Assembly: GCA_025061115.1 (NCBI GenBank)
Contig: JANZKC010000003.1
Span: 129,196-193,195, forward strand
Origin: Candidatus Culexmicrobium cathedralense
GTDB taxonomy: Archaea > Thermoproteota > Methanomethylicia > Culexarchaeales > Culexmicrobiaceae
Length of the DNA: 64,000 nucleotides
Reading direction: 5' to 3'
Part shown: piece after piece, positions 11,061 to 41,960 of the stretch
Position numbering within the stretch: the first letter of the stretch is position 1
Layout: the number at the start of each line of letters is the position of its first letter
Translations under genes and position numbers: made by a program
The notes under the pieces: model-generated
The model's input: the letters and a program-made list of their open reading frames with translations, nothing else
What the model was told of the DNA's origin: nothing
The model's database searches: none

Positions 11061-11064
11061 TCTA

Positions 11065-11841: not shown

Positions 11842-11962
11842 GCTGCTAACCTCCAAAACCTCATTTGCATGTTGAAATTTAACGTTTAGCATGCTGGAGA
11901 AGCTGATCCTAAAAACTTTTAATTTTATAATTGGTGAGTTTTAAGCAGCTGGTGAATTGGCC

Positions 11963-27128: not shown

Positions 27129-27821
27129 CTACGTTTCGATCTCCCTCGACTCATAAAGCTTCTTCAACTCCTCAATGCTCATTTTAGTTAGCTTTTCCAG
27201 TTCCTCCTTGTACTTGCCTTGAAGTATTTCATTTATCCTCTCTTCTAAGTGCTTGGCCTTCTTGGATAAGTACTTTCCATAAAGCCTTCTAACTAGCTGG
27301 AAAACTTGGTAGTGAACTATTTCCGCTGGACATCTAATGCTACATATTCCACAAGCTATGCAGTCGAAGCTTAGTTCAGCTGCTTTAATTAAATTTCCTC
27401 TAATTAGTGATTGAATTGCATCCATAACTTCCAGGTTTTGTGGGCAAGACTTGGTACATGTATTGCAAGCAACGCACCTAGTTATTTCGGGGAATATGGA
27501 GAGCACGGTTGAAGCAGTTGGCCTCAGCTTTTCAATATCGTATTTTGGCTTTTCAGCTGGAACGAACGGTATCTGAACTAGGTACATTCCCTCTTGAACT
27601 GTTGTTTGGCATGCAAGTCCAGTATATAACTTATAATCATTCCCAATTCTATACACGGTTGCACATGCTCCGCAGAATCCGCCTCTGCATCCGCATCCTC
27701 GAATAAATTTGTAGCCTGCATACTCCATTGCCTTCATTATGGTTAGTCCTTCTGGAACTTCGTACATTTTGCCCATGATGTATATTTTAACCATCTTAAT
27801 TTTCTTCTCTTCATTACTCAT
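27129..27821 (-). CDS. SdhB/FrdB-like iron-sulfur protein
   Basis: 2Fe-2S motif CGCRGGFCGACATV..LAC, followed by CVACNTCTKSCP and CIACGICSIRCP. 4-nt overlap with the upstream gene. Confidence 0.8.
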   Translation of the reverse strand: MSNEEKKIKMVKIYIMGKMYEVPEGLTIMKAMEYAGYKFIRGCGCRGGFCGACATVYRIGNDYKLYTGLACQTTVQEGMYLVQIPFVPAEKPKYDIEKLRPTASTVLSIFPEITRCVACNTCTKSCPQNLEVMDAIQSLIRGNLIKAAELSFDCIACGICSIRCPAEIVHYQVFQLVRRLYGKYLSKKAKHLEERINEILQGKYKEELEKLTKMSIEELKKLYESREIET

Positions 27822-28672
27822 TTCACATCCTCCCCTAAAAGTGAAGAAATAACCTTTCTAACTTCAGGGTTAAGAACATTTTCAATTCCAAATGCGTAAG
27901 CCATTAATTCAGTAAAGTAGACGACTGGGATGCTTGGTCTCCTACTTGGCAGCGTTAGATTGTACTGGCATAAGGGGCATGTTGTTGCAATTACGTTTGC
28001 TCCCCACCTGTTTGCTGCTTTTCGAATTTCGAGTGCTCTATCAACTGCTATTTTCTTGTCATAGACTACGTTATATGCGCTGCAGCATTTAATTCTGTGC
28101 GGGAACTTTATTGCCTCTGCTCCAATGGCCTCTAACAGGTTTTCGAGTGTCGTTGGATTTTCAGGATTATCAATGCCTATTTCTTTTGGCCTAAGCAGTG
28201 TACAGCCATAGAATGGCGCAACTTTAAGTCCATTTAATGGCTTAACTGTAAGCTCCCTTACCTTTTCAAATCCAATAAGATCTCTGACCACTTCAATAAA
28301 GTGCAGCACCTCTATCCCGCACTCATAGTTTTCCTCTTCATCCATAAACTCATTTATAGTCTTAAGCTTTTCACTATCAATTTTAAGTAGCTCATTTACT
28401 CGCTTGAGTACGTTATAGCACATCGAGCATAAAGTGACAAGCCTATTATCATTTAATTTTCTGCCCATTTCTTGAGCTCTAACTAAATCTCTTACAGCTC
28501 CAATGTGGTGAATTACGCTATCAATAGCTAAGTTTAGCACTGCTCCGCAGCAATTCCATCGGTCAAGTTCAATTAGATCTATGCCCATCTTCCTTGCAAC
28601 TGCAAGTGCGCTTTCCTCATAATTTAATGCAGTGGTCTTTAGCGTACAGCCTGGAAAGTACATGAGCTTCAC
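27818..28672 (-). CDS. HdrB / SdhE-like protein with two CCG-type cysteine-rich domains
   Basis: 284 aa. YFPGC..WNCCGA..LCSMC and FYGC..KCCSAY..TCPLC follow the pattern of CCG domains found in HdrB, TfrB and type-E SdhE. Confidence 0.8.
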   Translation of the reverse strand: MKLMYFPGCTLKTTALNYEESALAVARKMGIDLIELDRWNCCGAVLNLAIDSVIHHIGAVRDLVRAQEMGRKLNDNRLVTLCSMCYNVLKRVNELLKIDSEKLKTINEFMDEEENYECGIEVLHFIEVVRDLIGFEKVRELTVKPLNGLKVAPFYGCTLLRPKEIGIDNPENPTTLENLLEAIGAEAIKFPHRIKCCSAYNVVYDKKIAVDRALEIRKAANRWGANVIATTCPLCQYNLTLPSRRPSIPVVYFTELMAYAFGIENVLNPEVRKVISSLLGEDVK

Positions 28673-28676
28673 ACTC

Positions 28677-29048
28677 TCACCCCATAAGCTTTCTCGATGC
28701 TGCTACAAGTGCAATTTGCGGCATTTCACCGACTTCCGGCACTTTTCTAAGGTTAACCACGTATAATCCCTTCCTCATCTTTATGTTTCTTAGAGCGTTG
28801 ATCACTCTTGCGGTGTCTATTCCTCTGGGGCATCTGACTGTGCAGTTGTAGCATGAAGCGCAGATCCAAAGAGTGTTCGAGTCTAGTACATCCTCCATAT
28901 TTAGCTGAATCATTCTAACTACTTGATTTGGCGGCACATCCATGATGCTTACTAGTGGGCAAGTTCCGCTGCAAATTCCACATTGGAAGCATAAATACAC
29001 GTTTTCCCCAGTTAATTCGTAAACTTTTTGAGCCAAACCTTTAAACAT
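28677..29048 (-). CDS. HdrC-like 2x[4Fe-4S] ferredoxin-domain protein
   Basis: CFQCGICSGTCP and CASCYNCTVRCP motifs. ATG 29048 lies 7 nt after GGAGGTG. Confidence 0.75.
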   Translation of the reverse strand: MFKGLAQKVYELTGENVYLCFQCGICSGTCPLVSIMDVPPNQVVRMIQLNMEDVLDSNTLWICASCYNCTVRCPRGIDTARVINALRNIKMRKGLYVVNLRKVPEVGEMPQIALVAASRKLMG

Positions 29049-29061
29049 GCCCACACACCTC

Positions 29062-31455
29062 CTAAATTTTTATTTTTGCTCTTTCCTCTGGCTTTAACGG
29101 TCCAAGTCTTTCAACCATCTTTACTAGGTCATTAAGGTTCTTCGCCAGCCTCTCCGCAGTATCGACTGCAATTGTGTCGAACCTTAGTCTCCTAGCATCG
29201 ATTCTGCATCTTCGCAGTTTAGCTCTAGTTTTACGCATCAAGTCATTTATGGCATCTAGAACTTTGGGGTGATAAGGGGAGCCGCCTGGCAGGCAGTCTC
29301 CAATGAAAATTGCGTCTGCGCCGAACTTGAATGCGCTTAAAATTATTTTTGGAGTTAACCTGCTTGAGCTTGGAATTCTTATGATTCTAACTTTATCAGT
29401 GTAGTTTATTCTGCTTGTTCCAGCTAGATCTGCCGCTCTGTAGGTGCATGAATCGTCGAAGAATGCTAGGACTCTTATTTCTCCTTCCTTCTTGCTTGCA
29501 AGTATGGCCTTTATTTCATCAATAATCTGCTCTTCAGTGTAGTGCTTTAAGTCTATAGCGTTCTTGGGGCAGTATGGTATGCAGCTACCGCACCCACCGC
29601 ATAGTGCCTCGTTAATTTTTGCAGTGCTATTCTCAATAGTTATTGCTCCTAGTGGACACTTGTCAATGCACTTTCCACAGCCATCGCAAAGCTCCTCCTT
29701 AACAAAGGCCTTTATTGGTTCAACTATTATTCTTCTTTGGCTGATTAGCCTTAATGCTCTTCCAGCAGCTGCGCTCGCTTGCGCTACGGTGTCGCATATG
29801 TCCTTTGGACCCTGAGCGCAGCCACAAATGAAAATGCCCTCTCTTAGGGTATCTACTGGCCTGTACTTTGGATGAGCTTCAAGGAAGAATCCGCCAGGTC
29901 CAGTTGTTATTTTAAGTATTTTTGCTAGTTCTTCGGTTCCTTTGCTTGGGACTAGTCCAACTGAAAGCACTACAAGATCGAATTCCATTTCAATCATTCT
30001 GCCTGTAAGTGTGTCCTCAGCTCTAACTATCAGATTTTTAGTTATTGGATCCTCAATTATTTCAGCAACTTTACCTCTAATGAACTGAATGCCCATTTCC
30101 TGTGCTCTCATATAATATTCTTCAAATCCCTTTCCAAATGCCCTAATATCAATGTAGAAGATGTACACGTCTCGCGTTATGTCCTGCCTTTTAAGTATCA
30201 TCGCCTGCTTGATCGCGTACATACAGCATATTCTCGAGCAGTTTGGTCTTCCAATTGTTTCATCTCTTGATCCTATGCATTGGATGAAAGCTATTCGCTT
30301 AGCAATTTTTCCGTCTGAAAGTCGGATTACTTTGCCTGCAGTTGGTCCTGTCGGCATGACTAATCTTTCGAGTTGGGGTGCAATGATGACATTAGCGTAC
30401 TTGCCATACCCATATTGCTCAAGCAGAGTTGCGTCAAATGGGTCATAACCTGTAGCCACAATGATCACATCAACAGTTACGTTTATCGTTTTAGGTTTAT
30501 CTTCGAAGTTTATTGCATTCTGTGGACATACCTTTTCGCAAAGGCGGCATACACCCTTAGTCAGGTAGAGGCAGTGAGCTTCATCAATTAAGTACTTATA
30601 TGGCACAGCCATTTCATGGGGAACATAAATTGCCTTTCTCATTCTTAAGCCATAGTTGAACTCGTCGGGAACTTTAGTTGGACATTTTTCCGCGCATTTG
30701 CCGCATGCCACGCACTTGGTCATGTCAACGTATCTTGGCTTAACTTTAATTGTAACTTTAAAGTTTCCAACGTGCCCCTCAACCCTTTCAACTTCACTGT
30801 AGGTCAATAGGGTTATGTTAGGGTGATTGTAGACTGCAGCCATTTTAGGCGATAAGATGCAGAGGGAGCAGTCGTCTGTGGGGAATGTGTAGCTTAGCTG
30901 CGCCATTCTACCTCCAATTGTCGGCTGTCTTTCAACCAAGTATACTTTGCAGCCTGAATCAGCCAGGTCTAAAGCGGCTTGAATGCCTGCAATTCCTCCT
31001 CCTATTACTAAAACTCTCTTACCAATCTCGATTTCTTTAACTTGAAGAGCTTGATTCAGCCTGGCCTTAGCGACGGCTGCTGCCACTTGATCTTTAGCTT
31101 TCAAAGTGGCTCCTTCAGGATTGTCGGAGTGAACCCATGAGCACTGCTCTCTTATGTTGGCCATTTCAAGAAAGTATGGATTTAACCCAGCTTCTTCAAT
31201 AAGTTTTTTAAATGTAGCTTCATGGAATTTTGGGGAGCATGCTGCAATGACGATTCTATTCAGATGGTACTTCTTAATGTCTTCTAGAACCATTTTCTGG
31301 GCAGTTTCCGAGCACATGTGCTCATGATCCTTGGCCAAGACAACGCCAGGTAAATTTCCAGCGAAATTTCTTACTTCTTCGACGTTGACGACGTTAGAAA
31401 TGTTTCCGCCGCAATGACAAATGTAAACGCCTATCCGTACGCCGTCGCTTGTCAT
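29062..31455 (-). CDS. hdrA: heterodisulfide reductase subunit A-like flavoprotein fused to an MvhD-like domain
   Basis: About 797 aa. N-terminal YICHCGGNIS, FAD motif VLVIGGGIAGIQAALDLA, ferredoxin motifs CVACGKCAEKCP, CRLCEKVCP, CDGCGKCIDKCP and CGGCGSCIPYCP, and a C-terminal 140-aa MvhD-like domain. ATG 31455 is preceded by GGTGAT. Confidence 0.85.
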   Translation of the reverse strand: MTSDGVRIGVYICHCGGNISNVVNVEEVRNFAGNLPGVVLAKDHEHMCSETAQKMVLEDIKKYHLNRIVIAACSPKFHEATFKKLIEEAGLNPYFLEMANIREQCSWVHSDNPEGATLKAKDQVAAAVAKARLNQALQVKEIEIGKRVLVIGGGIAGIQAALDLADSGCKVYLVERQPTIGGRMAQLSYTFPTDDCSLCILSPKMAAVYNHPNITLLTYSEVERVEGHVGNFKVTIKVKPRYVDMTKCVACGKCAEKCPTKVPDEFNYGLRMRKAIYVPHEMAVPYKYLIDEAHCLYLTKGVCRLCEKVCPQNAINFEDKPKTINVTVDVIIVATGYDPFDATLLEQYGYGKYANVIIAPQLERLVMPTGPTAGKVIRLSDGKIAKRIAFIQCIGSRDETIGRPNCSRICCMYAIKQAMILKRQDITRDVYIFYIDIRAFGKGFEEYYMRAQEMGIQFIRGKVAEIIEDPITKNLIVRAEDTLTGRMIEMEFDLVVLSVGLVPSKGTEELAKILKITTGPGGFFLEAHPKYRPVDTLREGIFICGCAQGPKDICDTVAQASAAAGRALRLISQRRIIVEPIKAFVKEELCDGCGKCIDKCPLGAITIENSTAKINEALCGGCGSCIPYCPKNAIDLKHYTEEQIIDEIKAILASKKEGEIRVLAFFDDSCTYRAADLAGTSRINYTDKVRIIRIPSSSRLTPKIILSAFKFGADAIFIGDCLPGGSPYHPKVLDAINDLMRKTRAKLRRCRIDARRLRFDTIAVDTAERLAKNLNDLVKMVERLGPLKPEERAKIKI

Positions 31456-31464
31456 TAGTATCAC

Positions 31465-31592
31465 CGCTCATCATTGGTTGGATAAAAAGCATATTTATCG
31501 CTTTCTTTAAAATTGTAGGCTTAACATGAGTATTTTCCGCGTAAATTATTTAAGATTATTATACATGATTAGCTCGCTGGAGATGGTTTGAA
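31465..31592. promoter_or_regulatory. divergent promoter region between the hdrA operon and the gcvH-hydrogenase operon
   Basis: 128-bp AT-rich spacer with TATA-like boxes on both sides (ATAAATAT on the minus strand near 31480-31492, AAATTATTTAAG near 31543-31554). No coding potential. Confidence 0.5.
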
Positions 31593-31988
31593 ATGAGTGA
31601 GGAGTATGAAGTTCGTGAAGGACTATATTATACTGAAGACCACACTTGGGCTGAAGTTTTGCCTGACGGAACCGTAAAGGTCGGCATAACGGATTATGCT
31701 CAGAAAATGTTGAAGACAGTTAGGCGAGTTAGACTTGAAGAAGTTGGCGCAGAGGTTGAGCAGTTCGAGCCCTTTGGAATTATCGAGTCAACTAAAGCTA
31801 CTAGCGACTTAATTTCCCCTGTTAGCGGAACGATTAAGAAGGTAAATGAAAGCGTCCTCCGCCAACCATCAATAGTTAACACTGACCCCTATGGCGCTGG
31901 TTGGCTAGTGATAATTGAGCCTTCAAATCTAGAGGAAGAACTTGAAAGCTTGCTGGACGCTGAAGGATATAAGGAGTACATGGTTTAG
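31593..31988 (+). CDS. GcvH-family lipoyl carrier protein (LbpA-like context)
   Basis: 131 aa. Lipoyl-lysine context IIESTKATSDLISPVSG (K68, nt 31794-31796). No gcvP, gcvT or lpd in the window. Confidence 0.85.
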   Translation: MSEEYEVREGLYYTEDHTWAEVLPDGTVKVGITDYAQKMLKTVRRVRLEEVGAEVEQFEPFGIIESTKATSDLISPVSGTIKKVNESVLRQPSIVNTDPYGAGWLVIIEPSNLEEELESLLDAEGYKEYMV

Positions 31989-31999
31989 CAGCGAATTAA

Positions 32000-32479
32000 A
32001 TGCGAGGCAATCATATGACTAAACTTGAGCTTCAAAAAGTTCTTTTATATGATCCAAATAAGTGCTCGGGATGCCTCTACTGCATGATAGTATGCTCATA
32101 TTCTCATTATGGAGAAATTTCACTTGATAAAGCTCATCTGGAGGTCTTGAGAGACCCCTTTAATCCAAATATGTTTATAAATGCTCACTGTGCTCACTGT
32201 CAATACCCATATTGTGAAGCCGCCTGCCCGCTTGATCCTAAAGCCATAGTTAAAGATGAGGATACTGGCTTCGTTTTGATAAATTCAGCTCGATGTATTG
32301 GGTGCAGAAGCTGCAATTATGCATGCCCAATATCAATCCCACATTTCGACGAGATATTCAAAGTAAGTGTCAAGTGCGATGCATGTAAAGGAGAATTTTT
32401 ATGTGCCAAGTACTGCAGCACGGGCGCTCTGAGGGTTGTTACGAGGAAAGAGGCGATGGAGGCTCTTCAACATGAGTGA
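32000..32479 (+). CDS. HycB-like multi-[4Fe-4S] electron-transfer protein
   Basis: 159 aa with four cluster motifs: CSGCLYCMIVC, CAHCQYPYCEAACP, CIGCRSCNYACP and CDACKGEFLCAKYC. Alternative start at ATG 32015. Confidence 0.75.
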   Translation: MRGNHMTKLELQKVLLYDPNKCSGCLYCMIVCSYSHYGEISLDKAHLEVLRDPFNPNMFINAHCAHCQYPYCEAACPLDPKAIVKDEDTGFVLINSARCIGCRSCNYACPISIPHFDEIFKVSVKCDACKGEFLCAKYCSTGALRVVTRKEAMEALQHE

Positions 32480-32750
32480 GAAGGAGCTTAAACTCTATCC
32501 TTTAAGAAAGAGGATTATCGGCTTGCCGCAGCCATTTAAGCCTCCAACAAGTGGGATATTGAAGTATGGTCACGTGCCCAGGCTATCAGGATTTTTGCAG
32601 AGAACTAGATCTAAGCTTGGACTTTCAAAAGCTCCACCTACAGCCTATCAAGTTAAAGAAGCAGTTGAGGAAGTTCAAAATATAATTAGAACTTTAAAGC
32701 TGGACATAAAGTTTGCTTGGGATTGGAAGAAAAAGAGATTTCAGTATTAG
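32472..32750 (+). CDS. small basic protein of unknown function
   Basis: 92 aa counted from ATG 32472, which overlaps the upstream stop by 8 nt. No motif recognised. Confidence 0.45.
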   Translation: MSEKELKLYPLRKRIIGLPQPFKPPTSGILKYGHVPRLSGFLQRTRSKLGLSKAPPTAYQVKEAVEEVQNIIRTLKLDIKFAWDWKKKRFQY

Positions 32751-32763
32751 GAGATGAAACTAT

Positions 32764-33633
32764 ATGGCTAAGTACTCGCTTTTCCTTGGTTGCTACATTC
32801 CTTCAATGCAGCCATTTGCTGAGGCTGCTCTCCGTAAAATATCTCCTGATCTAAACATTGAATTGCTAGATATTGTTGGAGCCACGTGCTGTCCCGTACC
32901 CGAAATAGTTAGGCTAGTTGATGATGAAGCTTGGATTACAATTGCAGCTAGAAATTTAGCTCTAGCCGATTCAATGAGTCATGATATCCTCGTATTATGC
33001 AATGGGTGCTGGGAAACCCTTTATGAAGCGAGGGAAAAGTTGCTGCATGATATCAAGCTTAGAAATAAAGTGAATTCGAACTTGAAGCTCCTAGGTAAGA
33101 AGTTTACTGGAAAAGCTGAAGTTAAGCATTATACTCAAGTGCTGGTTGAAGATGTAGGTTTGGATGCACTGAGAAGGAACATTAAAGTGGATTTAAAGAA
33201 CTTGAAAGTTGCTGTTCATCCAGGATGCAAGTTGTATAAGAGTGATGGTGAGAAGCTAGCTAAGTACTTAAGAGATATTGTTGAAGCTTTGGGCGTCCAA
33301 GTAGTTGAATATGGAATTGAAAGAGTTTGCTGCGGATACCCCCTAATGCTTGCATCGGTTGATAAGGCAATTCATGAGAGAACGAAGTGGAAGTTAGATG
33401 CAATTAAGGATGCTAATGCTGATATGATCGTTGTTGCATGTCCAGCATGTTATGATCAATTAGAGAAGGCTCAACTTGCTCTCCGCGATGAAGGGCTAGA
33501 GTACAATTTGCCAGTTCTTCACCTAACCGAGCTTATAGCCTTAGCTTTTGGCTATAAAGCTGGAGAGATTGGTTTAGACTTGCATGGAATAAGCTGTATG
33601 CCAGTAATTGAGAAACTGGAGGGAGTTAAGTGA
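32764..33633 (+). CDS. HdrB-like protein with two CCG-type cysteine-rich domains
   Basis: 289 aa. LGC..TCCPVP..LCNGC and HPGC..VCCGYP..ACPACYDQL. Confidence 0.8.
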   Translation: MAKYSLFLGCYIPSMQPFAEAALRKISPDLNIELLDIVGATCCPVPEIVRLVDDEAWITIAARNLALADSMSHDILVLCNGCWETLYEAREKLLHDIKLRNKVNSNLKLLGKKFTGKAEVKHYTQVLVEDVGLDALRRNIKVDLKNLKVAVHPGCKLYKSDGEKLAKYLRDIVEALGVQVVEYGIERVCCGYPLMLASVDKAIHERTKWKLDAIKDANADMIVVACPACYDQLEKAQLALRDEGLEYNLPVLHLTELIALAFGYKAGEIGLDLHGISCMPVIEKLEGVK

Positions 33634-34088
33634 GATTTAAGCAGAAAATGATGGTTTTCTCCCCATGGTTATTTCACCTACATGCTGGGGGCTGCAATGG
33701 CTGCGATATTGAGCTGGTTGCAGCATTAACTCCCAGATTTGATGTTGAGCGTTTTGGAATAGTGTTGGTCGGTTCGCCAAAATTTGCTGACATTCTAGTT
33801 GTAACGGGTCCTGTTCCAAAGCAAATCGCACCTTTTCTGAAGAGGGTTTATAATCAAGTTCCAGATCCAAAGGTAGTTGTTGCCGTTGGCTCATGCGCTT
33901 GCTCTGGAGGAGTATTTAATGATGAAGAAGGCGAGGAAACATATGCTATTGTGGGAGGAGTAGATAAGATAATTCCGGTTGACGTTTATGTGCCGGGGTG
34001 CCCTCCAAAGCCTGAAGCGATTATTGATGGTGTAGTTAAGGCGATTAAGATTTTAGCTGAGAAGGCTGGTGGTAGGGGTGAACATTAA
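33630..34088 (+). CDS. group-4 [NiFe] hydrogenase small subunit (NuoB/HycG/EchC-like)
   Basis: 152 aa. Proximal-cluster ligand contexts GGCNGCDIE, GSCACSGG and VPGCPPKPE. Confidence 0.85.
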   Translation: MRFKQKMMVFSPWLFHLHAGGCNGCDIELVAALTPRFDVERFGIVLVGSPKFADILVVTGPVPKQIAPFLKRVYNQVPDPKVVVAVGSCACSGGVFNDEEGEETYAIVGGVDKIIPVDVYVPGCPPKPEAIIDGVVKAIKILAEKAGGRGEH

Positions 34089-34371
34089 GTATAAGTACTT
34101 GCCATTCATTGCATCTCTAATTGCATCAACTACAGGCATCATATTTGCTTTCATCGTAGAAAGCCCCATATTGCTCTTATTCCTAATCGAGCTGGCATCA
34201 ACTTCAGCGTTCTACTTACTATTCCTAGTTATTTTGTCTTCACTTCAACCTGAAAAGGTCGACATGGAAACTACTTTTGCATGTGGCTTGGCTAAACCTC
34301 CATACCTAGATCCAAACGAACTCTATCAGTTCAAGTTTCCAATAGTTGAGGAGGAAGGGGAAAATGAGTAG
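34069..34371 (+). CDS. small integral membrane subunit (unknown)
   Basis: 100 aa with two or three TM helices. Embedded between hydrogenase subunit genes with overlaps on both sides. Confidence 0.5.
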   Translation: MVGVNIKYKYLPFIASLIASTTGIIFAFIVESPILLLFLIELASTSAFYLLFLVILSSLQPEKVDMETTFACGLAKPPYLDPNELYQFKFPIVEEEGENE

Positions 34372-35839
34372 CGAACTTATTTTAACATTAGCTATTCCAT
34401 TAATTGCATCAATAACTGTCGCTTTACTTGAATCAAATGTAGCCCACGCTATTTCATTAACAGCTCTCGGGCTAACCCTAATAATAAATACTCACTTACT
34501 CACGATTTCGCTGGCAGGTACAACTCAAGTTTGTGGCAGTCTAATTGGTGATCCTATTGGCCTGCTGATGAGTGAATTAATCCTAATCGTAGGTTTCATA
34601 TCTGTAAGCTACTCCTTCCAATACTTCCCCGTAGGTCAAGATAGGAGAAGCCGCTTTTTTATGGCTTTAATGCTCGCCTTCGCTTCAACCCTTATTGGAT
34701 TAGCACTGTCTTCAAACATTCTAGGAATGCTTCTTTTCCTAGAAGCCTCAACAGTTCTCAGCGTCGTCCTAATAATTTATGGCGAGAGAGGTCGTAAAGC
34801 AATGCTTGCCGCTTCAATATACTTGGTAATGTCCATTGTAGAGTCATTATTGATAGTTGGTGGAATCTACTATTTAGCTAAGGCTTCAAACCTCCAGTTG
34901 TCAGCAATCAATATTTTCAATATTCAAAAATTGCACCCAGTAGCAGAGCCTGAAGCTTCAATTGCAGCTTTCCTTATATTGCTAGGTTTTGGTACTAAGG
35001 CTGGCATCATACCTTTAGCGTTAATATGGCTTCCAATAACGCATGCAGAGGCTCCATCACCAGTTAGCGCTAATCTCTCAGGTGTGATGATTGAGGCTGC
35101 TTTCATAGCTACACTCAGATGCGCGTATGCATTACTTCCTCATGCTTCAGATGTTGTTATTACGTTGCTCGCTGGCCTCGGAATGGCTAGCATCTGGGCT
35201 GGAATTTTTGGCATGATAATAGATAGAGACTTAAAGCGGGTTCTAGCTTTTAGTAGCATTTTAAGCATGGGCAGTGTATGCATGGTAACTGGACTTAGCT
35301 TGGCATCAAGTGGAGAAAACTTAGCTGCGGGACTTCAAGGCGTATTGTATTATTTAACTGCACATTCAGTTGGAAAGGCACTGCTCTTCTTAGGGAGCGG
35401 ATCGTACTTAAAGAAAATCGGAGAACGAAACTGGACTAAAATGGCTGGCGCAACCAAAATTTTGCCAATAACTTCAGCTCTTTGGATTGTTGGAGCAATT
35501 AGCATAGCCGGACTGTTTCCTCCTGCGGCAGGATACTACGCTAAACACTTAATGATAAACTGTATAGATAACCTCGAAGTAGCGGTATGCGGCATACCTG
35601 CATTCTACTATAAGTTGTCCCTATATGCTGGAGGGATAGCGATATTTCTCATATTATTGGGGTTTACAGTATTTTCTCTTAGAGGAGCTGGAGAGCCAAA
35701 TGATGTTTCAAAGTTAATGTTGATATCAAAAATTGCTCTTGCAGCAATCTGCATAATTTTAGGATTAGTTTCAACTAGCCTTGAACATGAGCTGTTCGCA
35801 ACAGCTGTAAATGCAATCTTAAGATTAGGAGGTGGATGA
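34364..35839 (+). CDS. NuoL/HycC/EchA-like antiporter-type membrane subunit
   Basis: About 490-aa polytopic protein with the layout of the proton-conducting NuoL/M/N family. ATG 34364 follows GAGGAGGAAGGGG. Confidence 0.8.
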   Translation: MSSELILTLAIPLIASITVALLESNVAHAISLTALGLTLIINTHLLTISLAGTTQVCGSLIGDPIGLLMSELILIVGFISVSYSFQYFPVGQDRRSRFFMALMLAFASTLIGLALSSNILGMLLFLEASTVLSVVLIIYGERGRKAMLAASIYLVMSIVESLLIVGGIYYLAKASNLQLSAINIFNIQKLHPVAEPEASIAAFLILLGFGTKAGIIPLALIWLPITHAEAPSPVSANLSGVMIEAAFIATLRCAYALLPHASDVVITLLAGLGMASIWAGIFGMIIDRDLKRVLAFSSILSMGSVCMVTGLSLASSGENLAAGLQGVLYYLTAHSVGKALLFLGSGSYLKKIGERNWTKMAGATKILPITSALWIVGAISIAGLFPPAAGYYAKHLMINCIDNLEVAVCGIPAFYYKLSLYAGGIAIFLILLGFTVFSLRGAGEPNDVSKLMLISKIALAAICIILGLVSTSLEHELFATAVNAILRLGGG

Positions 35840-37484
35840 CGTGGCTGGCATTAGGGAAGTAACCGCTGAACTTGAAAAAATATTATCACCAGACTTTGAA
35901 GTTGCCCGAACAGATGTTAATGGAAATCACATTTACATTAAAACTTCTCCAAACAAACTTCTAGATGCAGCTAGATACTTACTCCTAATTGACGCAAGGT
36001 TAGTTCACGTAACCGCTTCAGATATGGGAACTAAGGGCTTAAAGGTACTTCACATATATGGATTAGATCACTTAAAGCAGCACGCTCACATAATTTTGTA
36101 TGCACTTGTTCCCAGAAATGCTCCAAAGGTTCCTTCAGTTGCTGCTTTAACCTATCAAGCTTCGTGGGCTGAAAGAGAAACAATGGAACTTTTAGGCATA
36201 GAATTTGAAGGTCATCCTGACCCTCGACACATATTCCTTCCATTCGAGTGGCCTAAGCCAGTTGAAAGTGCTGAAGGCGAGTGGAATGAGGTTAAAGTTG
36301 AACGCCGTACTACTCTGCCAATAGGTCCATATCATCCAGCTCTTGTTGAAGGTGGATATTTCAAAGTTAAAGTTGATGGAGAAGAAATTATTGACGTTGA
36401 TATTAAGGTTGGATTCAACCATAGAGGTGTGATGAAACTAGCTGAAAGAAGAAGTTTCTGGAAAGACATCTTCCTTGTTGGCAGAATATGTGGAATCTGC
36501 AACACTCCCCACCGATTAACATTTGCTATCACTGCAGAAGCAATTGCAGGCATTACTCCTCCAGAAAGAGCAGAGTACATTAGAACTTTATTAGCAGAGC
36601 TCAATAGGATACATAGCCACCTTCTATGGCTCGGCATAGCTTGTGAGCTTATAGGTTTCAAAACTTTACTCATGTGGGCATGGAAAATAAGGGAGCCAAT
36701 TCAAGATTGCATAGAGCTGCTAACTGGAAATAGAGTTCACATGGACGCTATAATTATTGGCGGAGTGAGGCGAGACGTCTCACAGAGCCAAATAACTAAG
36801 GTTGAAGAAAAGCTAAAGCAAGTTAAAAAGGAATTAGAGTCACTAGTTGAAGTAGTATCTACTCATAGCTTAGTTAGAGCGAGAACTGAGGATATTGGTG
36901 TGCTTACGCTTGCAGACGCCAAGAATGGAGGAGCAGTAGGGCCAACTGCAAGAGCCAGTGGATGGAAAATTGATGTTAGGCGAGACAGCCCATATGCCGC
37001 GTATAGTGAAGAATATACGACTTGGGACGTAGTAGTCGATGATGGAAAAGACGTTCTTGCGAGAGTGATGGTTAGAGTTAAGGAAACATTAGTCTCGATA
37101 GATCTTTGCCTCCAATGTTTAGACGCGTTGAAACGTGTGGGCGGCCCGGTCATTATAAAGGATGTTAAGGAATTTCCCGAAGGTGAAGCTATAAGGAAAA
37201 CTGAAGCTCCAAGAGGTGAATTATTCTACTACTTAGCATCAAATGGATTGAATATTCCGCAAACGGTTAGAATTAGAACTCCAAGCTATAGAAATATAGC
37301 TGCACTAGTGTTTATGCTTAAAGGTTACACTCTTTCGGACGCACCAATAATTATCGGTAGTGTAGATCCCTGCTTCTCATGCACTGATAGAGTAATAATA
37401 GTAGATGAGAAGAAAGGCAAGAAGGTGACTCTAAATTATGATGAATTCATGAGGGGTTTGGCGGTTAAAAAATTGGAGGAGTAG
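35832..37484 (+). CDS. group-4 [NiFe] hydrogenase large subunit, NuoC-NuoD fusion (HycE-like)
   Basis: 550 aa. N-terminal ~150 aa are NuoC-like. L1 motif RICGICNTPH (nt 36483-36512) and C-terminal DPCFSCTDR (nt 37365-37391), followed by a 30-aa tail. Start is GTG 35832 or GTG 35841. Confidence 0.9.
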   Translation: MDDVAGIREVTAELEKILSPDFEVARTDVNGNHIYIKTSPNKLLDAARYLLLIDARLVHVTASDMGTKGLKVLHIYGLDHLKQHAHIILYALVPRNAPKVPSVAALTYQASWAERETMELLGIEFEGHPDPRHIFLPFEWPKPVESAEGEWNEVKVERRTTLPIGPYHPALVEGGYFKVKVDGEEIIDVDIKVGFNHRGVMKLAERRSFWKDIFLVGRICGICNTPHRLTFAITAEAIAGITPPERAEYIRTLLAELNRIHSHLLWLGIACELIGFKTLLMWAWKIREPIQDCIELLTGNRVHMDAIIIGGVRRDVSQSQITKVEEKLKQVKKELESLVEVVSTHSLVRARTEDIGVLTLADAKNGGAVGPTARASGWKIDVRRDSPYAAYSEEYTTWDVVVDDGKDVLARVMVRVKETLVSIDLCLQCLDALKRVGGPVIIKDVKEFPEGEAIRKTEAPRGELFYYLASNGLNIPQTVRIRTPSYRNIAALVFMLKGYTLSDAPIIIGSVDPCFSCTDRVIIVDEKKGKKVTLNYDEFMRGLAVKKLEE

Positions 37485-37486
37485 CT

Positions 37487-38479
37487 ATGCTTGTCGCACT
37501 TGCAGTATTAATTCCAATCATAAGCTTCATGATCGGCGTGTTATTGAATTTTGAGATTAGAAAGGTATTTGCAAGAGCTCAATATAGGCTGGGGCCGCTT
37601 TTAACAATGTACAGCGATTTAAGGGGACTTTTAGGTTTTACGAGAATTTTGCAGCCGCTTTATGATATTTTAAAGCTTTCATATAAGGAGACTCTGATAC
37701 CTAAAAGTGCAAATAAAATGCTCTTCACGTCATCTCCATGGATAAGCCTAATACTTGCCGTCGCAGCCTCATACTTCATATCCTATGGAGGATTAACGAT
37801 TTTAGCTAACATCGAACTTAGCTTAATCTTCCTAACTTACCTCATCGTAGGAGTATCTCTATTCTGGATTATAGGTGCATCTGCAAGCTCATCACCCTGG
37901 GGCGCTATAGGTGTTAGGCGGGAAGCTGAACTTCTATTCTCAATTGAAGTTGCCCTGTTGTCGTCCATTTTTTCAGCCGCATTATTGGCAAACACTTTAT
38001 CAGTTCAAGGCATAGTGAATGCGCAGTTGAAACTGTATCCATACATATTGTTGAACCCATTAGCTGCAATAACCTTCATGATAGCCCTTTTAGGCAAGTT
38101 GCAATTAAAGCCATTCGACATTCCAGATGCTGAAGTTGAAATAGTGGCCGGTCCATTTACGGAGTATTCAGGAAAGCTTTTAGCATTGCTGCTTGCCTCC
38201 AAGTACTTTTTAACGGCAATCATGACTGGATTATTCGTCAATATCTTCCTGGGCGGAGGGCAAATTCTACCTCCCACAAATTCATTAAACTTGGCAGTTA
38301 ATTTCATCGTCTTCCTAATACTATGCATTGCAGTGGCATTTATAGCCTCGTTAATCCACGCAGTAGCGCCGCGATTTAGAGTTGATCAGGGATTTAAGTG
38401 GGTCATAACGCGCCTATGGCCGCTAGCCTTCGCATCGCTTGCCTTATCAATAGTCTTTAAAAGTATGGGGGTGTTATAG
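37487..38479 (+). CDS. NuoH/HycD/EchB-like membrane subunit
   Basis: 330-aa polytopic protein. Position and size match HycD/NuoH-type subunits. Confidence 0.8.
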   Translation: MLVALAVLIPIISFMIGVLLNFEIRKVFARAQYRLGPLLTMYSDLRGLLGFTRILQPLYDILKLSYKETLIPKSANKMLFTSSPWISLILAVAASYFISYGGLTILANIELSLIFLTYLIVGVSLFWIIGASASSSPWGAIGVRREAELLFSIEVALLSSIFSAALLANTLSVQGIVNAQLKLYPYILLNPLAAITFMIALLGKLQLKPFDIPDAEVEIVAGPFTEYSGKLLALLLASKYFLTAIMTGLFVNIFLGGGQILPPTNSLNLAVNFIVFLILCIAVAFIASLIHAVAPRFRVDQGFKWVITRLWPLAFASLALSIVFKSMGVL

Positions 38480-39052
38480 ATGCTGAAAGCCTTAAAGGAA
38501 GCTATATCTGCAATTTTTAACCCCGTGACAATCACGTATCCAGCTGGAAAACCTGAGGAAAAGTACAGTCAAATACCAGAAGGTTTGAGAGGGAAGCCGC
38601 AGTTCGATGATGAGAAGTGTATTGGGTGTGCAGCATGCACGGTTCAATGCAGTAGCGGCGCAGATACATTTCGCGACGAAGATGATAAGCGCATTATAGA
38701 AATAAGTTTGACAAAATGCATATTCTGCGGTAGATGTCAAGAAATATGCCCTCAAGAGGCAATTTCCCTAACTCAGGAATTCGAGTTGGCTAGCACTTCT
38801 AAAAACAACCTAAAAGTTACCATTGAGCACAATCTATTAAAATGTGAAAACTGTGGAGCACCAATTACAACCGAAAAGCAGCTGGATAAAATTGTTGAGA
38901 GAATATTAAGTCAAATTGATGAGAAAGCGAGAAAAATTGCTGAAGAAGACCTGCCTAAGTACATCCATCTATGTAGGAATTGTAGGAGAAAGTTGAGTTA
39001 CAAGCTTAATACGCATCCAAGAAAGCATTACTTATATGTGGATAGCAGTTAG
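38480..39052 (+). CDS. NuoI/HycF/EchF-like 2x[4Fe-4S] subunit with C-terminal Cys4 extension
   Basis: CIGCAACTVQC and CIFCGRCQEICP motifs, plus a CENCG..CRNC ribbon-like tail. Confidence 0.8.
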   Translation: MLKALKEAISAIFNPVTITYPAGKPEEKYSQIPEGLRGKPQFDDEKCIGCAACTVQCSSGADTFRDEDDKRIIEISLTKCIFCGRCQEICPQEAISLTQEFELASTSKNNLKVTIEHNLLKCENCGAPITTEKQLDKIVERILSQIDEKARKIAEEDLPKYIHLCRNCRRKLSYKLNTHPRKHYLYVDSS

Positions 39053-39084
39053 CTTTTATTAATCAGCCTGGAGGTTTGATTTGA

Positions 39085-39366
39085 ATGAAATTTAAGGCCG
39101 CATATAAGGCAGCTAAGCTAATTAAAGTTTCAATTGAAGTTGAGGCTGGAAGAATTAAGAATATCAAGTTTACAGGCGATTTCTTCATATACCCAGAAGA
39201 AGCGCTTGGAAAGCTTGAGGAAGAACTTAAAGGTGCAGAGCTAAACGAGTATAAGTTACTTCAAATCGTAGAGTCCTTTTTCATCAGGGAGAACGTAACT
39301 ACACCTTTAATTGAAGCAAGAGATTTCGTTAAAGCAATAATGAAAGCGGTTGGAAGGGAGATTTAG
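39085..39366 (+). CDS. lipoate-protein ligase C-terminal-domain protein (LplB-like)
   Basis: 93 aa. The sequence (IKNIKFTGDFFIYPEEAL) resembles the accessory C-terminal domain that is a separate polypeptide in the Thermoplasma LplA/LplB system. Confidence 0.65.
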   Translation: MKFKAAYKAAKLIKVSIEVEAGRIKNIKFTGDFFIYPEEALGKLEEELKGAELNEYKLLQIVESFFIRENVTTPLIEARDFVKAIMKAVGREI

Positions 39367-40347
39367 GTGGTCGAATATATTAGAGTTTCAATTGGAACTG
39401 CTGCAGTACTAGGCTTGTCAAGAATTAGAATGGCAGCATCCCCTACTACAGCCTATCTAATGACATATTACCCCGGAAAATGCTTAGCTAAATGCAGTTT
39501 TTGCACTCAATCCAGCGCAAGCATTACCGATGCGCAGTACTTATCTAGAGTATGCTGGCCCAAATTCAAATTCAGTGACGTTGTAAAAGCGCTATCCTCA
39601 TGCAAAGAATTCAAGCGAATATGCCTTCAAACAATAATCTATCCAAATATGATCCAAGATGCAGTTGAAATAGTGTCGACTCTTAAAAGCCGTACGGCTT
39701 TGCCAATATCAGTCTCCGTTCATCCTAAAAGTGTGGATGATGTTAAGCTTCTTATAAATGCAGGAGCGGATAGAATAGGTATTGGATTAGATGTAGCTAC
39801 GCCAGAGCTTTTCAAGAAAATTAAGAGGCCATTTTCATGGGATAGAACATTGAAGTTTATTGAAGATTCTATAAAGTTTCTTGGTGAAGGACGTTTAACC
39901 TGCCATTTAATTTACGGGCTTGGAGATACTGATGAAAGCTTCCTTAAACTTATCTACAAGCTCATGAAAAAAGGCGTTTTCACAAGCTTGTTTGCATTCA
40001 CCCCAATGGAGGGAACGCCTTTAGAAAATCTACCTCCGCCTAACCCATCAAAATATAGGGCAATACAGCTAGCTCATTACTTAATCACAAATAAAATTGC
40101 AGATATCAGTGATTTCAAATTTCAAAATGGAGATTTAGTAGGTATATCTTTGGAGAAGAAATTGTTAGTTGAAGTTATTGAGAGTGGAAAACCATTCATA
40201 ACGCGAGGCTGCCCAAACTGTAATAGGCCCTTCTATAATGAAAGTCCTAGAGGCCCAATATACAACTATCCTTCAATTGAATGGGTTAAAAAGGATATTA
40301 ATATTATCAAGCTTCAATTAAAGCAAGTTTTAGGTGAGATAATATGA
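39367..40347 (+). CDS. radical SAM protein, LipS1/LipS2-type lipoyl synthase component
   Basis: 326 aa. CxxxCxxC motif (GKCLAKCSFC). Embedded between lplB-like and lplA. Confidence 0.65.
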   Translation: MVEYIRVSIGTAAVLGLSRIRMAASPTTAYLMTYYPGKCLAKCSFCTQSSASITDAQYLSRVCWPKFKFSDVVKALSSCKEFKRICLQTIIYPNMIQDAVEIVSTLKSRTALPISVSVHPKSVDDVKLLINAGADRIGIGLDVATPELFKKIKRPFSWDRTLKFIEDSIKFLGEGRLTCHLIYGLGDTDESFLKLIYKLMKKGVFTSLFAFTPMEGTPLENLPPPNPSKYRAIQLAHYLITNKIADISDFKFQNGDLVGISLEKKLLVEVIESGKPFITRGCPNCNRPFYNESPRGPIYNYPSIEWVKKDINIIKLQLKQVLGEII

Positions 40348-41105
40348 GCGAGTGGCGCCTCATATATCTAAATGAATTTGATGGGTACTGGAACATGGCT
40401 ATAGATGAAGCAATGCTGATAATGAAGTCTAAAGGTAAAATTCCAAATACCCTTAGACTTTATCGATTCACTCCATCCGCGGTTACCATTGGATTTTTCC
40501 AATCGCCAAAAGAGGAAGTGAACATTGAGTTTTGCAGGAAGAATGGCATTGAAATAGTAAGACGCATAACTGGTGGAGGAACGGTATATCATGATGAAAA
40601 TGGCGAAATAACTTACTCAATAGTTGTAAGTGAAAAGGATGCGCCTAAAGATATACTTAGAAGCTATGAACTATTCTGCAGTGGCATAGTCAAGGCATTG
40701 GAAAGACTGGGACTTAAAGCTGAATTTCATCCAATAAATGATGTCCTAGTCTCGGGGAAGAAGATTTCAGGGTCGGCGCAAACAAGAAGGCGGGGAGTTG
40801 TTTTGCAGCATGGAACTTTAATGTACAATACAGATATATCAACACTAGCAGTTACGCTTAAGGTAATACCTGAAAAGCTTAAAGATAAGGGCGTAACTAA
40901 GCTCGAAGAAAGAGTGACAACGATTTCAAAGGCATTGAGTAGGCATGTTAGTAGGGATGAAGTTGTGCAAGCCATGATCGAAGGCTTTGCAGAAGCACTT
41001 CAAGTCAAATTTCATCATGATGAGCTGACAAGTGAAGAATTAGAACTGGCAGAAAAGCTGATGAAAGAGAAGTATTCAAAAGATGAGTGGAACTTTATGG
41101 TGTGA
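40344..41105 (+). CDS. lplA: lipoate-protein ligase A catalytic domain
   Basis: 253 aa. LplA/LipB/BirA-fold motifs (RRITGGGTVYHD, GKKISGSAQ). 4-nt overlap with the upstream gene. Confidence 0.85.
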   Translation: MSEWRLIYLNEFDGYWNMAIDEAMLIMKSKGKIPNTLRLYRFTPSAVTIGFFQSPKEEVNIEFCRKNGIEIVRRITGGGTVYHDENGEITYSIVVSEKDAPKDILRSYELFCSGIVKALERLGLKAEFHPINDVLVSGKKISGSAQTRRRGVVLQHGTLMYNTDISTLAVTLKVIPEKLKDKGVTKLEERVTTISKALSRHVSRDEVVQAMIEGFAEALQVKFHHDELTSEELELAEKLMKEKYSKDEWNFMV

Positions 41106-41108
41106 ATT

Positions 41109-41960
41109 ATGATTAAAGCCTATAAGCCGCTGCCAAAATTTCCATCGATTTCCATAACTGGATCGTGGTGTGCCTTAAACTGCAAGTATTGCCAGGGGAA
41201 AGTGCTTAAGGAAATGATTCACGTGAGCTCTCCAACGCAACTCTACGCGTTATGTAGGCAATTAAAGAAAAGGCATGGAATTGTAGGATGCCTAATAAGT
41301 GGAGGTTTCAATAAAAAGGGAAAGTTGCCGATAAAAGCCTATTTGCCGGCGATTAAGGAGATAAAGAAAACGCTTGATTTAATCGTAAGCGTTCATGCGG
41401 GACTGGTAGATGGAAATTATGCTAAGGAATTGAGAGAAGCAAAAGTGGATATCGTAGACTTAAACATACTTGATCCTCAAACAATGAGTGAAGTAATGAA
41501 TATGGATTCAAACTGGGAAGACATCGAAAAAACGCTTGATGCGCTTCAAAATTTTGGTCCCCCATATACTGCACCACACATACTAATTGGAGCTTACTAT
41601 GGAAGAATAAAGAGTGAATACGACTTAATTTCAATTCTTAAAGACTACGATCCGTACGTGATTGTTATGCTAATATTGCTTAAAGTTAGGGGAACACCCT
41701 TTGAATCAATAGAGCCTCCCAAAGCAGAAGAGATAATAAAAATTTTCGACTATGCGCGAAAACTCATTCCGAAAGCTGAATTAGCATTAGGGTGCATGCG
41801 CCCCAGAGGTAATTACAGTGAAAAACTAGAATTTGAGCTAATAAGTAAAAATCTAATTGACAGAATAGTTTTACCTTCAACATTTAAGCCTAAATACCTT
41901 CCATTTTGCTGTTCACTTCCAAAAGAACTTGAAGAAAAAATAGTTAAAGAGTTATTATGA
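41109..41960 (+). CDS. radical SAM protein, LipS1/LipS2-type lipoyl synthase component
   Basis: 283 aa. CxxxCxxC motif (WCALNCKYC). Starts 3 nt after lplA. Confidence 0.65.
   Translation: MIKAYKPLPKFPSISITGSWCALNCKYCQGKVLKEMIHVSSPTQLYALCRQLKKRHGIVGCLISGGFNKKGKLPIKAYLPAIKEIKKTLDLIVSVHAGLVDGNYAKELREAKVDIVDLNILDPQTMSEVMNMDSNWEDIEKTLDALQNFGPPYTAPHILIGAYYGRIKSEYDLISILKDYDPYVIVMLILLKVRGTPFESIEPPKAEEIIKIFDYARKLIPKAELALGCMRPRGNYSEKLEFELISKNLIDRIVLPSTFKPKYLPFCCSLPKELEEKIVKELL

Follow-up and report, generated by a model that had tools for sequence, protein, structure and literature searches.

The Ehe hydrogenase locus of Candidatus Culexmicrobium cathedralense and a lipoyl-GcvH protein as the possible partner of its HdrB module

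The Ehe gene cluster studied here lies in a 64,000-nucleotide (nt) stretch of Candidatus Culexmicrobium cathedralense (assembly GCA_025061115.1, contig JANZKC010000003.1, positions 129,196 to 193,195 of the forward strand), hereafter the window, to which all positions given without a locus name refer. Positions 31593-39052 hold ten genes that together encode a group-4 [NiFe] hydrogenase, an HdrB-type protein with its small partners and a GcvH-family lipoyl carrier. An open reading frame (ORF) check and profile searches found all the listed ORFs in place and upheld their family calls. A previous account, made from the sequence only, had counted eleven genes in this interval, but the 32-nt gap that it mentioned leads to the eleventh gene, LplB (39085-39366). 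The complete co-directional string comprises 14 genes (31593-41960) with an intergenic spacing of -26 to +32 nt. Its last four genes, LplB, LipS2, LplA and LipS1, are one of two gene sets missing from the sequence-only reading, the other being an upstream divergent operon encoding HdrA2, HdrC2, HdrB2, an Fe-S protein and a flavoprotein. Throughout this work, NCBIfam, TIGR and Pfam profile scores were judged against the family cutoffs, PDB sequence matches were used for solved relatives, and scans for absent genes covered the window ORFs of 110 amino acids (aa) or more.

The locus is most likely the predicted complex of hot-vent Culexarchaeia that Kohtz et al. 2022 (ISME Commun, PMC9723716) named "Ehe". 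In that nomenclature, EheA is NuoI, EheB is NuoH, EheC is the large subunit, EheD is the antiporter and EheF is NuoB, next to an EheE; EheG is HdrB, EheH is "HdrC?", EheI is the ferredoxin, EheJ is gcvH, EheK is sdhA, EheL is "cdhA", and EheM, EheN and EheO are HdrB2, HdrC2 and HdrA2. In the accessible part of the Kohtz gene tables (Suppl. File 5), the gene order of the window equals, gene for gene, that of genes 157-171 of the metagenome-assembled genome (MAG) GB-1867-005, and lplA is gene 174 of that MAG, the same index as the LplA of the window. The HdrB, HdrC-like, ferredoxin and antiporter genes stand in a single string with the hydrogenase, in an order identical to that of Suppl. File 5, and gcvH, sdhA, "cdhA" and hdrA2B2C2 are co-located as in Ehe. 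The sequence-only reading had implied that the arrangement was new; in fact the cluster was published in 2022, when GcvH (EheJ) was already suggested as a disulfide carrier for HdrB (PMC9723716). Both the composition and the GcvH hypothesis have thus been known since then, and the present work is a rediscovery of a predicted complex that corroborates and refines it. The ten genes are the following:

31593-31988, plus strand: EheJ, GcvH-family lipoyl carrier paralogue, 131 aa, net charge -14 (PF01597, E 3e-37; NCBIfam GcvH, 145 bits, cutoff 117)
32000-32479, plus strand: EheI, HycB/HybA/DmsB-type ferredoxin, 159 aa, four [4Fe-4S] motifs (Fer4_11, E 8e-14; 16 Cys forming four CxxCxxCxxxC)
32472-32750, plus strand: EheH, stand-alone HdrC C-terminal segment, 92 aa, net charge +13, pI 10.4, without Fe-S motif (matches to TIGR03290 and 8rvu_c)
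32764-33633, plus strand: EheG, HdrB-type protein with two CCG domains, 289 aa (full-length alignment with 5ODC_B)
33630-34088, plus strand: EheF, NuoB/HycG-like small subunit (PF01058, E 2e-35; Cys 22, 25, 89 and 124)
34069-34371, plus strand: EheE, membrane protein of 100 aa with 2-3 hydrophobic segments and no family match, conserved in position
34346-35839, plus strand: EheD, NuoL/HyfB-like antiporter subunit, 497 aa, about 14 hydrophobic segments (PF00361, E 2e-36; top NCBIfam match hydrogenase-4 subunit B)
35832-37484, plus strand: EheC, fused NuoC-NuoD [NiFe] large subunit with a 30-aa C-terminal tail (PF00329, PF00346, PF00374)
37487-38479, plus strand: EheB, NuoH/HycD-like membrane subunit (PF00146, E 7e-64)
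38480-39052, plus strand: EheA, NuoI/HycF-like 2x[4Fe-4S] subunit (NCBIfam formate hydrogenlyase iron-sulfur subunit, 128 bits; Cys pattern)

The HdrB module of this string consists of EheG, EheH and EheI. EheG aligns end to end with the solved HdrB 5ODC_B (E 3e-59), and although its score against the HdrB model TIGR03288 (242) is under the cutoff (345), all ten cluster cysteines of 5ODC_B are aligned in it (C10, C42, C43, C79, C82, C155, C189, C190, C226 and C229) and are kept in the window and in every relative. The two CCG halves that had been described for the 289-aa protein hold, also under the proper alignment on which the cysteine pattern was to be checked, and so do the four cysteine motifs of the 159-aa HycB-like protein. 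The 92-aa basic protein had been considered devoid of motifs. Nevertheless, EheH matches positions 83-141 of TIGR03290 (E 1.7e-7) and residues 117-181 of the HdrC 8rvu_c (E 5.8e-7), and is, judging from these matches, the part of the C-terminus of HdrC that clasps HdrB, with the ferredoxin domain absent. A full-length HdrC, made up of a 2x[4Fe-4S] domain and the clasp, is not encoded in the ehe string. Thus, HdrC would in effect be split: EheI presumably takes the ferredoxin role and provides the Fe-S wire, and EheH provides the clasp. EheI is retained across the Ehe loci and those of Ehd, a related hydrogenase of Methanomethylicia, and Ehd-like loci.

EheJ carries the lipoyl-lysine K68 within ESTKATSD (nt 31794-31796) and agrees in length, motif and family with what had been read from the sequence. 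Within the Ehe clade, the lipoyl region EPFG[IV]IESTKATSDLI is invariant and GcvH is more conserved (73-97% identity) than the large subunit (63-75%). Whether EheJ might be the only H protein of the cell was a point raised by the sequence-only reading, and it is not: in the accessible part of the Kohtz gene table (Suppl. File 3), each related MAG has two gcvH genes, one of them beside gcvT and the other corresponding to EheJ. EheJ is therefore regarded as a dedicated paralogue. The charges of EheH and GcvH vary together by subfamily, from +13 to +15 with -11 to -14 in one and from +5 to +9 with -3 to -6 in the other Culexarchaeia family, and the EheH homologues of GcvH-less Ehd-type loci have net charges of -4 to +7; this co-variation of a basic EheH with an acidic EheJ hints, if faintly, at docking.

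The existence of a second gcvH also bears on another scenario, in which Ehe would evolve H2 as a substitute for the L protein, reoxidizing the dihydrolipoyl H protein that arises in glycine cleavage or in other oxidations that depend on lipoyl groups. EheJ does score as a true GcvH, the potentials of the two couples (-290 versus -414 mV) are so close that low H2 together with high temperature could turn the reaction around, and the accessible part of the Kohtz gene table lists gcvPA, gcvPB, gcvH and gcvT while no lpd, K00382 or dihydrolipoyl entry was found in it. Yet that part of the table does not establish the absence of lpd, the separate gcvH that it places beside gcvT would make a second copy unneeded for glycine cleavage, and the fumarate-reductase-type flavoprotein encoded next to Ehe suggests an oxidant of the dithiol rather than a source of it. 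Taken together, this scenario seems quite improbable.

The arrangement was compared with loci of relatives (numbered with the prefix L), of which L001, L003-L005, L007, L008, L013-L016, L018 and L022-L028 are of Ehe type. An HdrB scan of GTDB genomes retrieved Ca. Culexmicrobium profundum, Ca. Culexmicrobium thermophilum, Ca. Culexarchaeum nevadense and related MAGs (62-84%). The order GcvH-EheI-EheH-EheG-hydrogenase, for which the sequence-only reading had asked for a synteny check, is kept in every Ehe-type locus with enough sequence and in each relative with a large-subunit identity of 63% or more; since it is conserved in every relative examined, it is not the product of chance. The block encoding HdrA2B2C2 and the flavoprotein is divergent in some Ehe loci and co-directional in others, while GcvH always stands directly 5' of EheI, and it is therefore tied to the hydrogenase block. 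At a large-subunit identity of 54-56%, the core made up of ferredoxin, HdrC tail, HdrB and hydrogenase occurs without GcvH (L009, L010 and L020), and the same GcvH-less core is found in the Ehd of Methanosuratincola verstraetei, where it adjoins mtaBC (L021).

These GcvH-less loci are an argument for an alternative in which the substrate of the HdrB module is a disulfide or polysulfide of low molecular weight, functionally analogous to the heterodisulfide of coenzymes M and B (CoM-S-S-CoB), and EheJ serves another purpose, such as the HdrA2B2C2-flavoprotein complex only, a lipoyl relay or regulation. The module composed of ferredoxin, HdrC tail and HdrB is indeed present without gcvH in Ehd and Ehd-like loci, including that of the methanogen Methanosuratincola, for which CoM-S-S-CoB is the proposed substrate, and EheG resembles canonical HdrB and the HdrB of Ehd to nearly the same degree (36% and 34% identity, respectively). 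Nevertheless, GcvH is always the first gene of the ehe string and among the most conserved of the cluster, its adjacency to CCG genes recurs independently elsewhere (see below), and Culexarchaeia are reported not to have full CoM and CoB biosynthesis pathways (Kohtz et al. 2022, PMC9723716). For these reasons, the reduction of a small disulfide is considered unlikely. A gene of the ComB family (2-phosphosulfolactate phosphatase) is present in the window (5772-6515, minus strand), despite the reported incompleteness of the coenzyme M pathway.

Immediately downstream of EheA, the string continues with four lipoate-assembly genes, and a T-rich stretch lies 3' of the last one (after 41960):

39085-39366, plus strand: LplB, lipoate-protein ligase small subunit, 32 nt from EheA (NF053749, 75 bits, cutoff 65)
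39367-40347, plus strand: LipS2 lipoyl synthase (NF053743, 364 bits, cutoff 270)
40344-41105, plus strand: LplA, lipoate-protein ligase large subunit (PF21948, E 4e-61; NF053750, 278 bits, below the cutoff of 480)
41109-41960, plus strand: LipS1 lipoyl synthase (NF053742, 243 bits, cutoff 230)

The presence of lipoate-attachment genes in the same string lends added support to the idea of a lipoyl carrier. An LplB gene follows the ehe genes at a distance of no more than 5 kb in the window, L003, L005, L007, L008, L018 and L028, accompanied by LipS2 wherever the sequence reaches far enough; the loci of GB-1845-036 type, L001 and L025, do not have it there. Besides the LplAB/LipS1/LipS2 genes, Hdr subunits and a lipoate-binding protein resembling GcvH are parts that Ehe has in common with the sHdr-LbpA systems of sulfur oxidation. 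One may thus imagine that the GcvH-like protein presents sulfane sulfur to HdrB and that the electrons go to the hydrogenase. However, sHdr systems are reported to occur without exception together with sulfur transferases, namely DsrE (DsrE3), TusA or rhodanese (PMC11094781), and none of these genes was detected among the window ORFs searched, the region from 24.6 to 42 kb having no free coding space; membership of the sHdr systems was rejected on this ground. Moreover, EheJ scores as a GcvH, a hydrogenase is not part of the described sHdr systems (Cao et al. 2018; PMC11094781) and the reduction of protons with electrons from sulfur oxidation would, by our reasoning, be uphill. A sulfur-oxidizing role of this type is therefore highly improbable.

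The hydrogenase core contains the set of subunits that had been deduced from the sequence (NuoB-like, 100-aa membrane protein, NuoL-like, NuoC-NuoD fusion, NuoH-like and NuoI-like), on which the family searches agree. EheC keeps both CxxC ligand motifs at the positions reported for them (RICGICNTPH, 36483-36512; DPCFSCTDR, 37365-37391), and its best matches, 63-75% identical, come from Ca. Culexmicrobium, Culexarchaeum and Methanomethylicia-labelled MAGs. Its designation as a formate hydrogenlyase (FHL)-type enzyme is only partly retained: the closest solved large subunit is E. coli HycE (7z0s_E, 295 bits), followed by MbhL (256 bits), but in the tree of Kohtz et al. (PMC9723716) the large subunit belongs to a cluster of Ehe, Ehd and Drh, all of whose members are HdrB-linked, outside the classified group-4 subgroups. 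As had been noted before, genes for formate dehydrogenase, carbon monoxide dehydrogenase (CODH) or gcvP/T/L are not found among the window ORFs scanned, and neither is a molybdopterin gene. Formate hydrogenlyase membership was rejected because these ORFs include no formate dehydrogenase gene. EheA has four additional C-terminal cysteines past its two [4Fe-4S] motifs (C122, C125, C165 and C168, in a CxxC...CxxC pattern), which may bind a further metal.

The link between GcvH and CCG proteins extends beyond Ehe. A sample of 80 metagenomic gcvH loci was surveyed and scored for an ORF with the CCG pattern within 3 kb. The seven loci whose gcvH is closest (at least 75% identity) are all of Ehe type, and in the next seven (51-66%) gcvH always comes right after the gene of a protein of about 390 aa with Fer4_8 and two CCG domains, similar to the C-terminal part of TfrB. 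A CCG gene occurs within 3 kb in 13/13 close-clade gcvH loci versus 1/41 distant ones (Fisher p = 1.3e-11). These data are difficult to reconcile with an incidental adjacency, in which GcvH and the lipoate genes would be housekeeping genes of glycine cleavage that happen to flank a hydrogenase operon. Such a reading can appeal to EheJ passing the GcvH cutoffs and to the accessible part of the Kohtz tables, where lplA is listed under amino-acid metabolism; but it has to account for a conservation in both Culexarchaeia families despite the rearrangement of the neighbouring block, and for the second gcvH that accompanies gcvT in the same tables, and it is hardly credible.

Three further architectures combine gcvH with a CCG gene. 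The first is that of the 51-66% clade (L011:5286-10782, also L012 and L029-L035), which usually has a GlcD-like FAD oxidase upstream and LplA and Lpd downstream; the dihydrolipoyl dehydrogenase of these loci is bona fide (501 bits, over the cutoff), and the whole looks like an uncharacterized lipoyl-GcvH-dependent oxidoreductase chain linked to NAD(H). The second is the sole exception among the distant loci, L057 (79-10396), a Bathyarchaeia-like contig that encodes a group-4 hydrogenase, HdrA(MvhD), HdrC, HdrB and GcvH in one string, in the order antiporter, NuoC, NuoD (the [NiFe] subunit, unfused), NuoH, NuoI, a membrane protein of 210 aa, NuoB, HdrA(MvhD), full-length HdrC, HdrB and GcvH; this GcvH is 43% identical to EheJ. 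The third comes from Bathyarchaeota GCA_052246975.1 (L102:2833-13482, also L103), in which GcvH, a LutA-like CCG protein and a LutB-like protein (LUD/Fe-S) are encoded divergently from an Ehd-like hydrogenase with EheH-like (43%), HdrB (46%) and EheI-like (55%) genes. The pairing of gcvH with CCG genes therefore recurs in independent architectures, at least three besides Ehe (L011/L029-L035, L057 and L102). Since four separate architectures place gcvH beside a CCG gene, lipoyl-GcvH could be a general protein-bound dithiol/disulfide carrier for CCG/HdrB enzymes where CoM and CoB are absent, a generalization that we advance tentatively and rate somewhat short of even. Literature searches returned nothing on a general link between GcvH and Hdr.

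The second gene set to be considered reads in the opposite direction from the ehe string and is separated from it by a region that presumably holds the promoters of both operons:

31465-31592, no strand: divergent intergenic region between HdrA2 and GcvH, 128 nt, AT-rich
29062-31464, minus strand: EheO, HdrA2-type HdrA with fused MvhD domain, 800 aa (NF040770 HdrA2, 1000 bits, cutoff 1100; FlpD at the C-terminus)
28677-29054, minus strand: EheN, HdrC2, ferredoxin domain only, 125 aa (TIGR03290 positions 3-89, 84 bits)
27818-28672, minus strand: EheM, HdrB2/SdhE-like protein with two complete CCG motifs (PF02754; about 141 bits against both the HdrB and SdhE models; Cys pattern)
27129-27821, minus strand: EheL, protein of 230 aa with [2Fe-2S] and 2x[4Fe-4S] (Fer2_4 and Fer4_9), the "cdhA" of Kohtz
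25441-27117, minus strand: EheK, TfrA/SdhA/NadB-family flavoprotein (top NCBIfam match TfrA, 318 bits)

EheK is the protein from which the direction of electron flow may be surmised. It keeps the dicarboxylate-site motifs HPTG, HY..GG and NRL.GNSL, does not match the SdhA C-terminal Pfam domain and has an Asn instead of the His that binds FAD covalently, the segment FGDANTKMAQGG being invariant in eight loci. In the Sdh/Frd family, the covalent flavin link is required for succinate oxidation, as illustrated by E. coli FrdA H44 mutants, and a FAD that is not covalently bound is a mark of enzymes that reduce fumarate or oxidize aspartate rather than of those that oxidize succinate. Because of this replacement of His by Asn, fumarate reduction seems favored over succinate oxidation for EheK, and a route from succinate oxidation to H2 is disfavored. 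At its N-terminus, EheK is also extended by some 90 aa that are conserved, contain no Cys and match no family. Directly downstream of it lies a gene of the Asp/Glu racemase family (24632-25300, minus strand), also present in the Culexmicrobium-type loci L003/L004, L013, L014 and L023 and not found at that place in the other Ehe loci; this neighbor could hint at aspartate or maleate feeding EheK. The match of EheL to CdhA is limited to a 68-aa ferredoxin insert (41 bits versus a cutoff of 781). The CO-oxidizing module implied by the name "CdhA" was thus rejected, and the CO-oxidation proposal of Kohtz is left without a catalytic subunit. Elsewhere in the window, EtfAB genes and genes for enoyl-CoA hydratase and 3-hydroxyacyl-CoA dehydrogenase (10095-11892 and 54241-55927, both minus strand) fit the beta-oxidation capacity that has been described in Culexarchaeia.

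The gene content, motifs, synteny and paralogy of the locus suggest how a complex might form, which substrate it would use, in which direction and with what ion coupling. Electrons would pass from the [NiFe] site of EheC to the proximal cluster of EheF, the two clusters of EheA and the four clusters of EheI, which would extend the hydrogenase core to the HdrB-type disulfide reductase EheG. The non-cubane clusters of EheG, clasped by EheH, would then deliver them to the lipoyl-K68 of EheJ, itself lipoylated by the co-encoded LplAB/LipS1/LipS2. The net reaction would be H2 + lipoyl-EheJ <-> dihydrolipoyl-EheJ, reversible at low H2. Given a lipoamide potential of -0.29 V (Cao et al. 2018), the step from -414 mV (H+/H2) to -290 mV would release about -24 kJ/mol, enough for about one ion translocated through EheB/EheD. 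Dihydrolipoyl-EheJ would be reoxidized at HdrB2 and its electrons would go to the flavoprotein and, most likely, to fumarate (about +30 mV, roughly -62 kJ/mol). Speculatively, HdrA2 may use some of this drop to reduce ferredoxin. Lipoyl-EheJ would thereby play the role that CoM-S-S-CoB has between Mvh/Hdr and the thiol:fumarate reductase of methanogens.

How far can this proposal be trusted? We give an even chance to Ehe functioning as an H2:lipoyl-protein oxidoreductase. This is the function that the sequence-only reading had put forward, and it gains from the conservation of the gene order, the HdrB cysteines, the second gcvH and the HdrB-linked cluster in the tree of Kohtz et al., so that none of the four refuting observations listed with it applies, whereas the action of HdrB on the lipoyl protein is drawn from gene context. 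Several observations weigh against it. By sequence, EheJ is an ordinary GcvH, which passes the cutoff of the equivalog model TIGR00527 (123.6, cutoff 115.85) and has true H proteins as top PDB matches. The Ehd and Ehd-like loci carry ferredoxin, HdrC tail and HdrB without GcvH, and the module therefore needs no lipoyl protein. The lipoate genes could serve all the lipoyl proteins of the cell, and the charge co-variation of EheH and GcvH concerns two subclades only. The antiporter gene eheD is missing from the otherwise intact Ehe clusters L003/L004/L014, L008 and L028, so that ion pumping may not be general across the Ehe clade. Finally, literature searches found no biochemical, genetic or transcript work on Ehe.

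Lipoate is classically the swinging arm of 2-oxoacid dehydrogenases and of the glycine cleavage system. If the lipoyl-protein reading is correct, an energy-converting hydrogenase would have as its redox substrate the lipoic acid borne by a small carrier protein. Culexarchaeia might then have an H2:fumarate respiratory chain free of quinones and of CoM/CoB, in which Ehe is linked through the carrier to an HdrA2B2C2-fumarate-reductase-like complex. HdrB enzymes outside methanogens would gain a defined substrate, and, if lipoyl-GcvH is indeed a general carrier, the long-standing question of the substrate of Hdr in such organisms would be settled.

Compared with the Ehe of Kohtz et al. (PMC9723716), the locus has the same gene set and order and calls for the same GcvH hypothesis, without essential difference. 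The revised details are that EheH is the HdrC tail only, that "CdhA" is no CODH, that the flavoprotein is fumarate-reductase-like and that the string includes the lipoate genes. These assignments of the HdrC tail and "CdhA", the lipoate-gene linkage, the argument on the direction of the flavoprotein and the wider association of GcvH with CCG proteins strengthen and generalize the hypothesis, and do not amount to proof. The closest other systems are Ehd (Methanomethylicia), Drh (Methanocellales) and Ehg (Nezhaarchaeia), which are, like Ehe, membrane-bound group-4 [NiFe] hydrogenases with an HdrB module and whose large subunits are about 45-55% identical to that of Ehe. The triad of ferredoxin, small protein and HdrB is seen in Ehd and Ehd-like loci, the gene list of Drh is similar (drhB-drhH-hdrB), and Ehg has HdrB and HdrC together with HdrA, MvhD and FdhF; expression of this Ehg complex has been seen in a Methanonezhaarchaeia strain grown in culture. 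Unlike Ehe, these three belong to methanogens, have CoM-S-S-CoB as proposed substrate and are devoid of GcvH, lipoate genes and the adjacent HdrA2B2C2-flavoprotein block. In E. coli FHL-1 (HycBCDEFG-FdhF, PDB 7Z0S), as in Ehe, NuoC and NuoD are fused, and a subunit of HycF type is present along with a four-cluster ferredoxin of HycB type leading to the input enzyme, but this input is formate dehydrogenase in FHL-1 and HdrB, with no formate dehydrogenase, in Ehe.

On the side of the carrier, sHdr-LbpA (Cao et al. 2018; Tanabe et al. 2023, 2024) resembles Ehe in its CCG subunits, its GcvH-homologous lipoate-binding protein and LplAB-LipS1/S2, and provides an earlier case of lipoyl-protein dependence in an Hdr-like enzyme. 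Yet sHdr oxidizes sulfane sulfur, is always found with a DsrE, TusA or rhodanese protein and includes no hydrogenase, whereas the Ehe locus shows no sulfur transferases among the window ORFs scanned and its carrier scores as GcvH proper. The subunit set of sHdr is sHdrA-B1-C1-B2-C2; the Hdr subunits of the Ehe locus, which may or may not be orthologous to it, are two HdrB, an HdrC, an HdrC tail and a fusion of HdrA2 with MvhD. EheJ is of the same fold family as the glycine cleavage H protein, has its lipoyl-lysine motif and would likewise cycle between dithiol and disulfide; it differs in that no P, T or L genes occur among the window ORFs scanned and in that its proposed partner is the Fe-S protein HdrB, not the flavoprotein Lpd. 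Canonical HdrABC has in common with EheG the two CCG motifs and ten cysteines, although its full-length HdrC has no equivalent in the ehe string. A parallel in overall logic is MvhAGD-HdrABC with TfrAB (Methanothermobacter), in which HdrB, linked to a hydrogenase, reduces a disulfide to thiols that a fumarate reductase with CCG domains then reoxidizes; TfrA is the top family of EheK, and HdrB2 is similar to SdhE and TfrB in their CCG parts. In Ehe, by contrast, the carrier would be a protein-bound lipoyl group and not CoM-S-S-CoB, the hydrogenase is a membrane enzyme of group 4 and not a soluble one of group 3c, and the fumarate-reductase role is one that EheK would probably fulfil.

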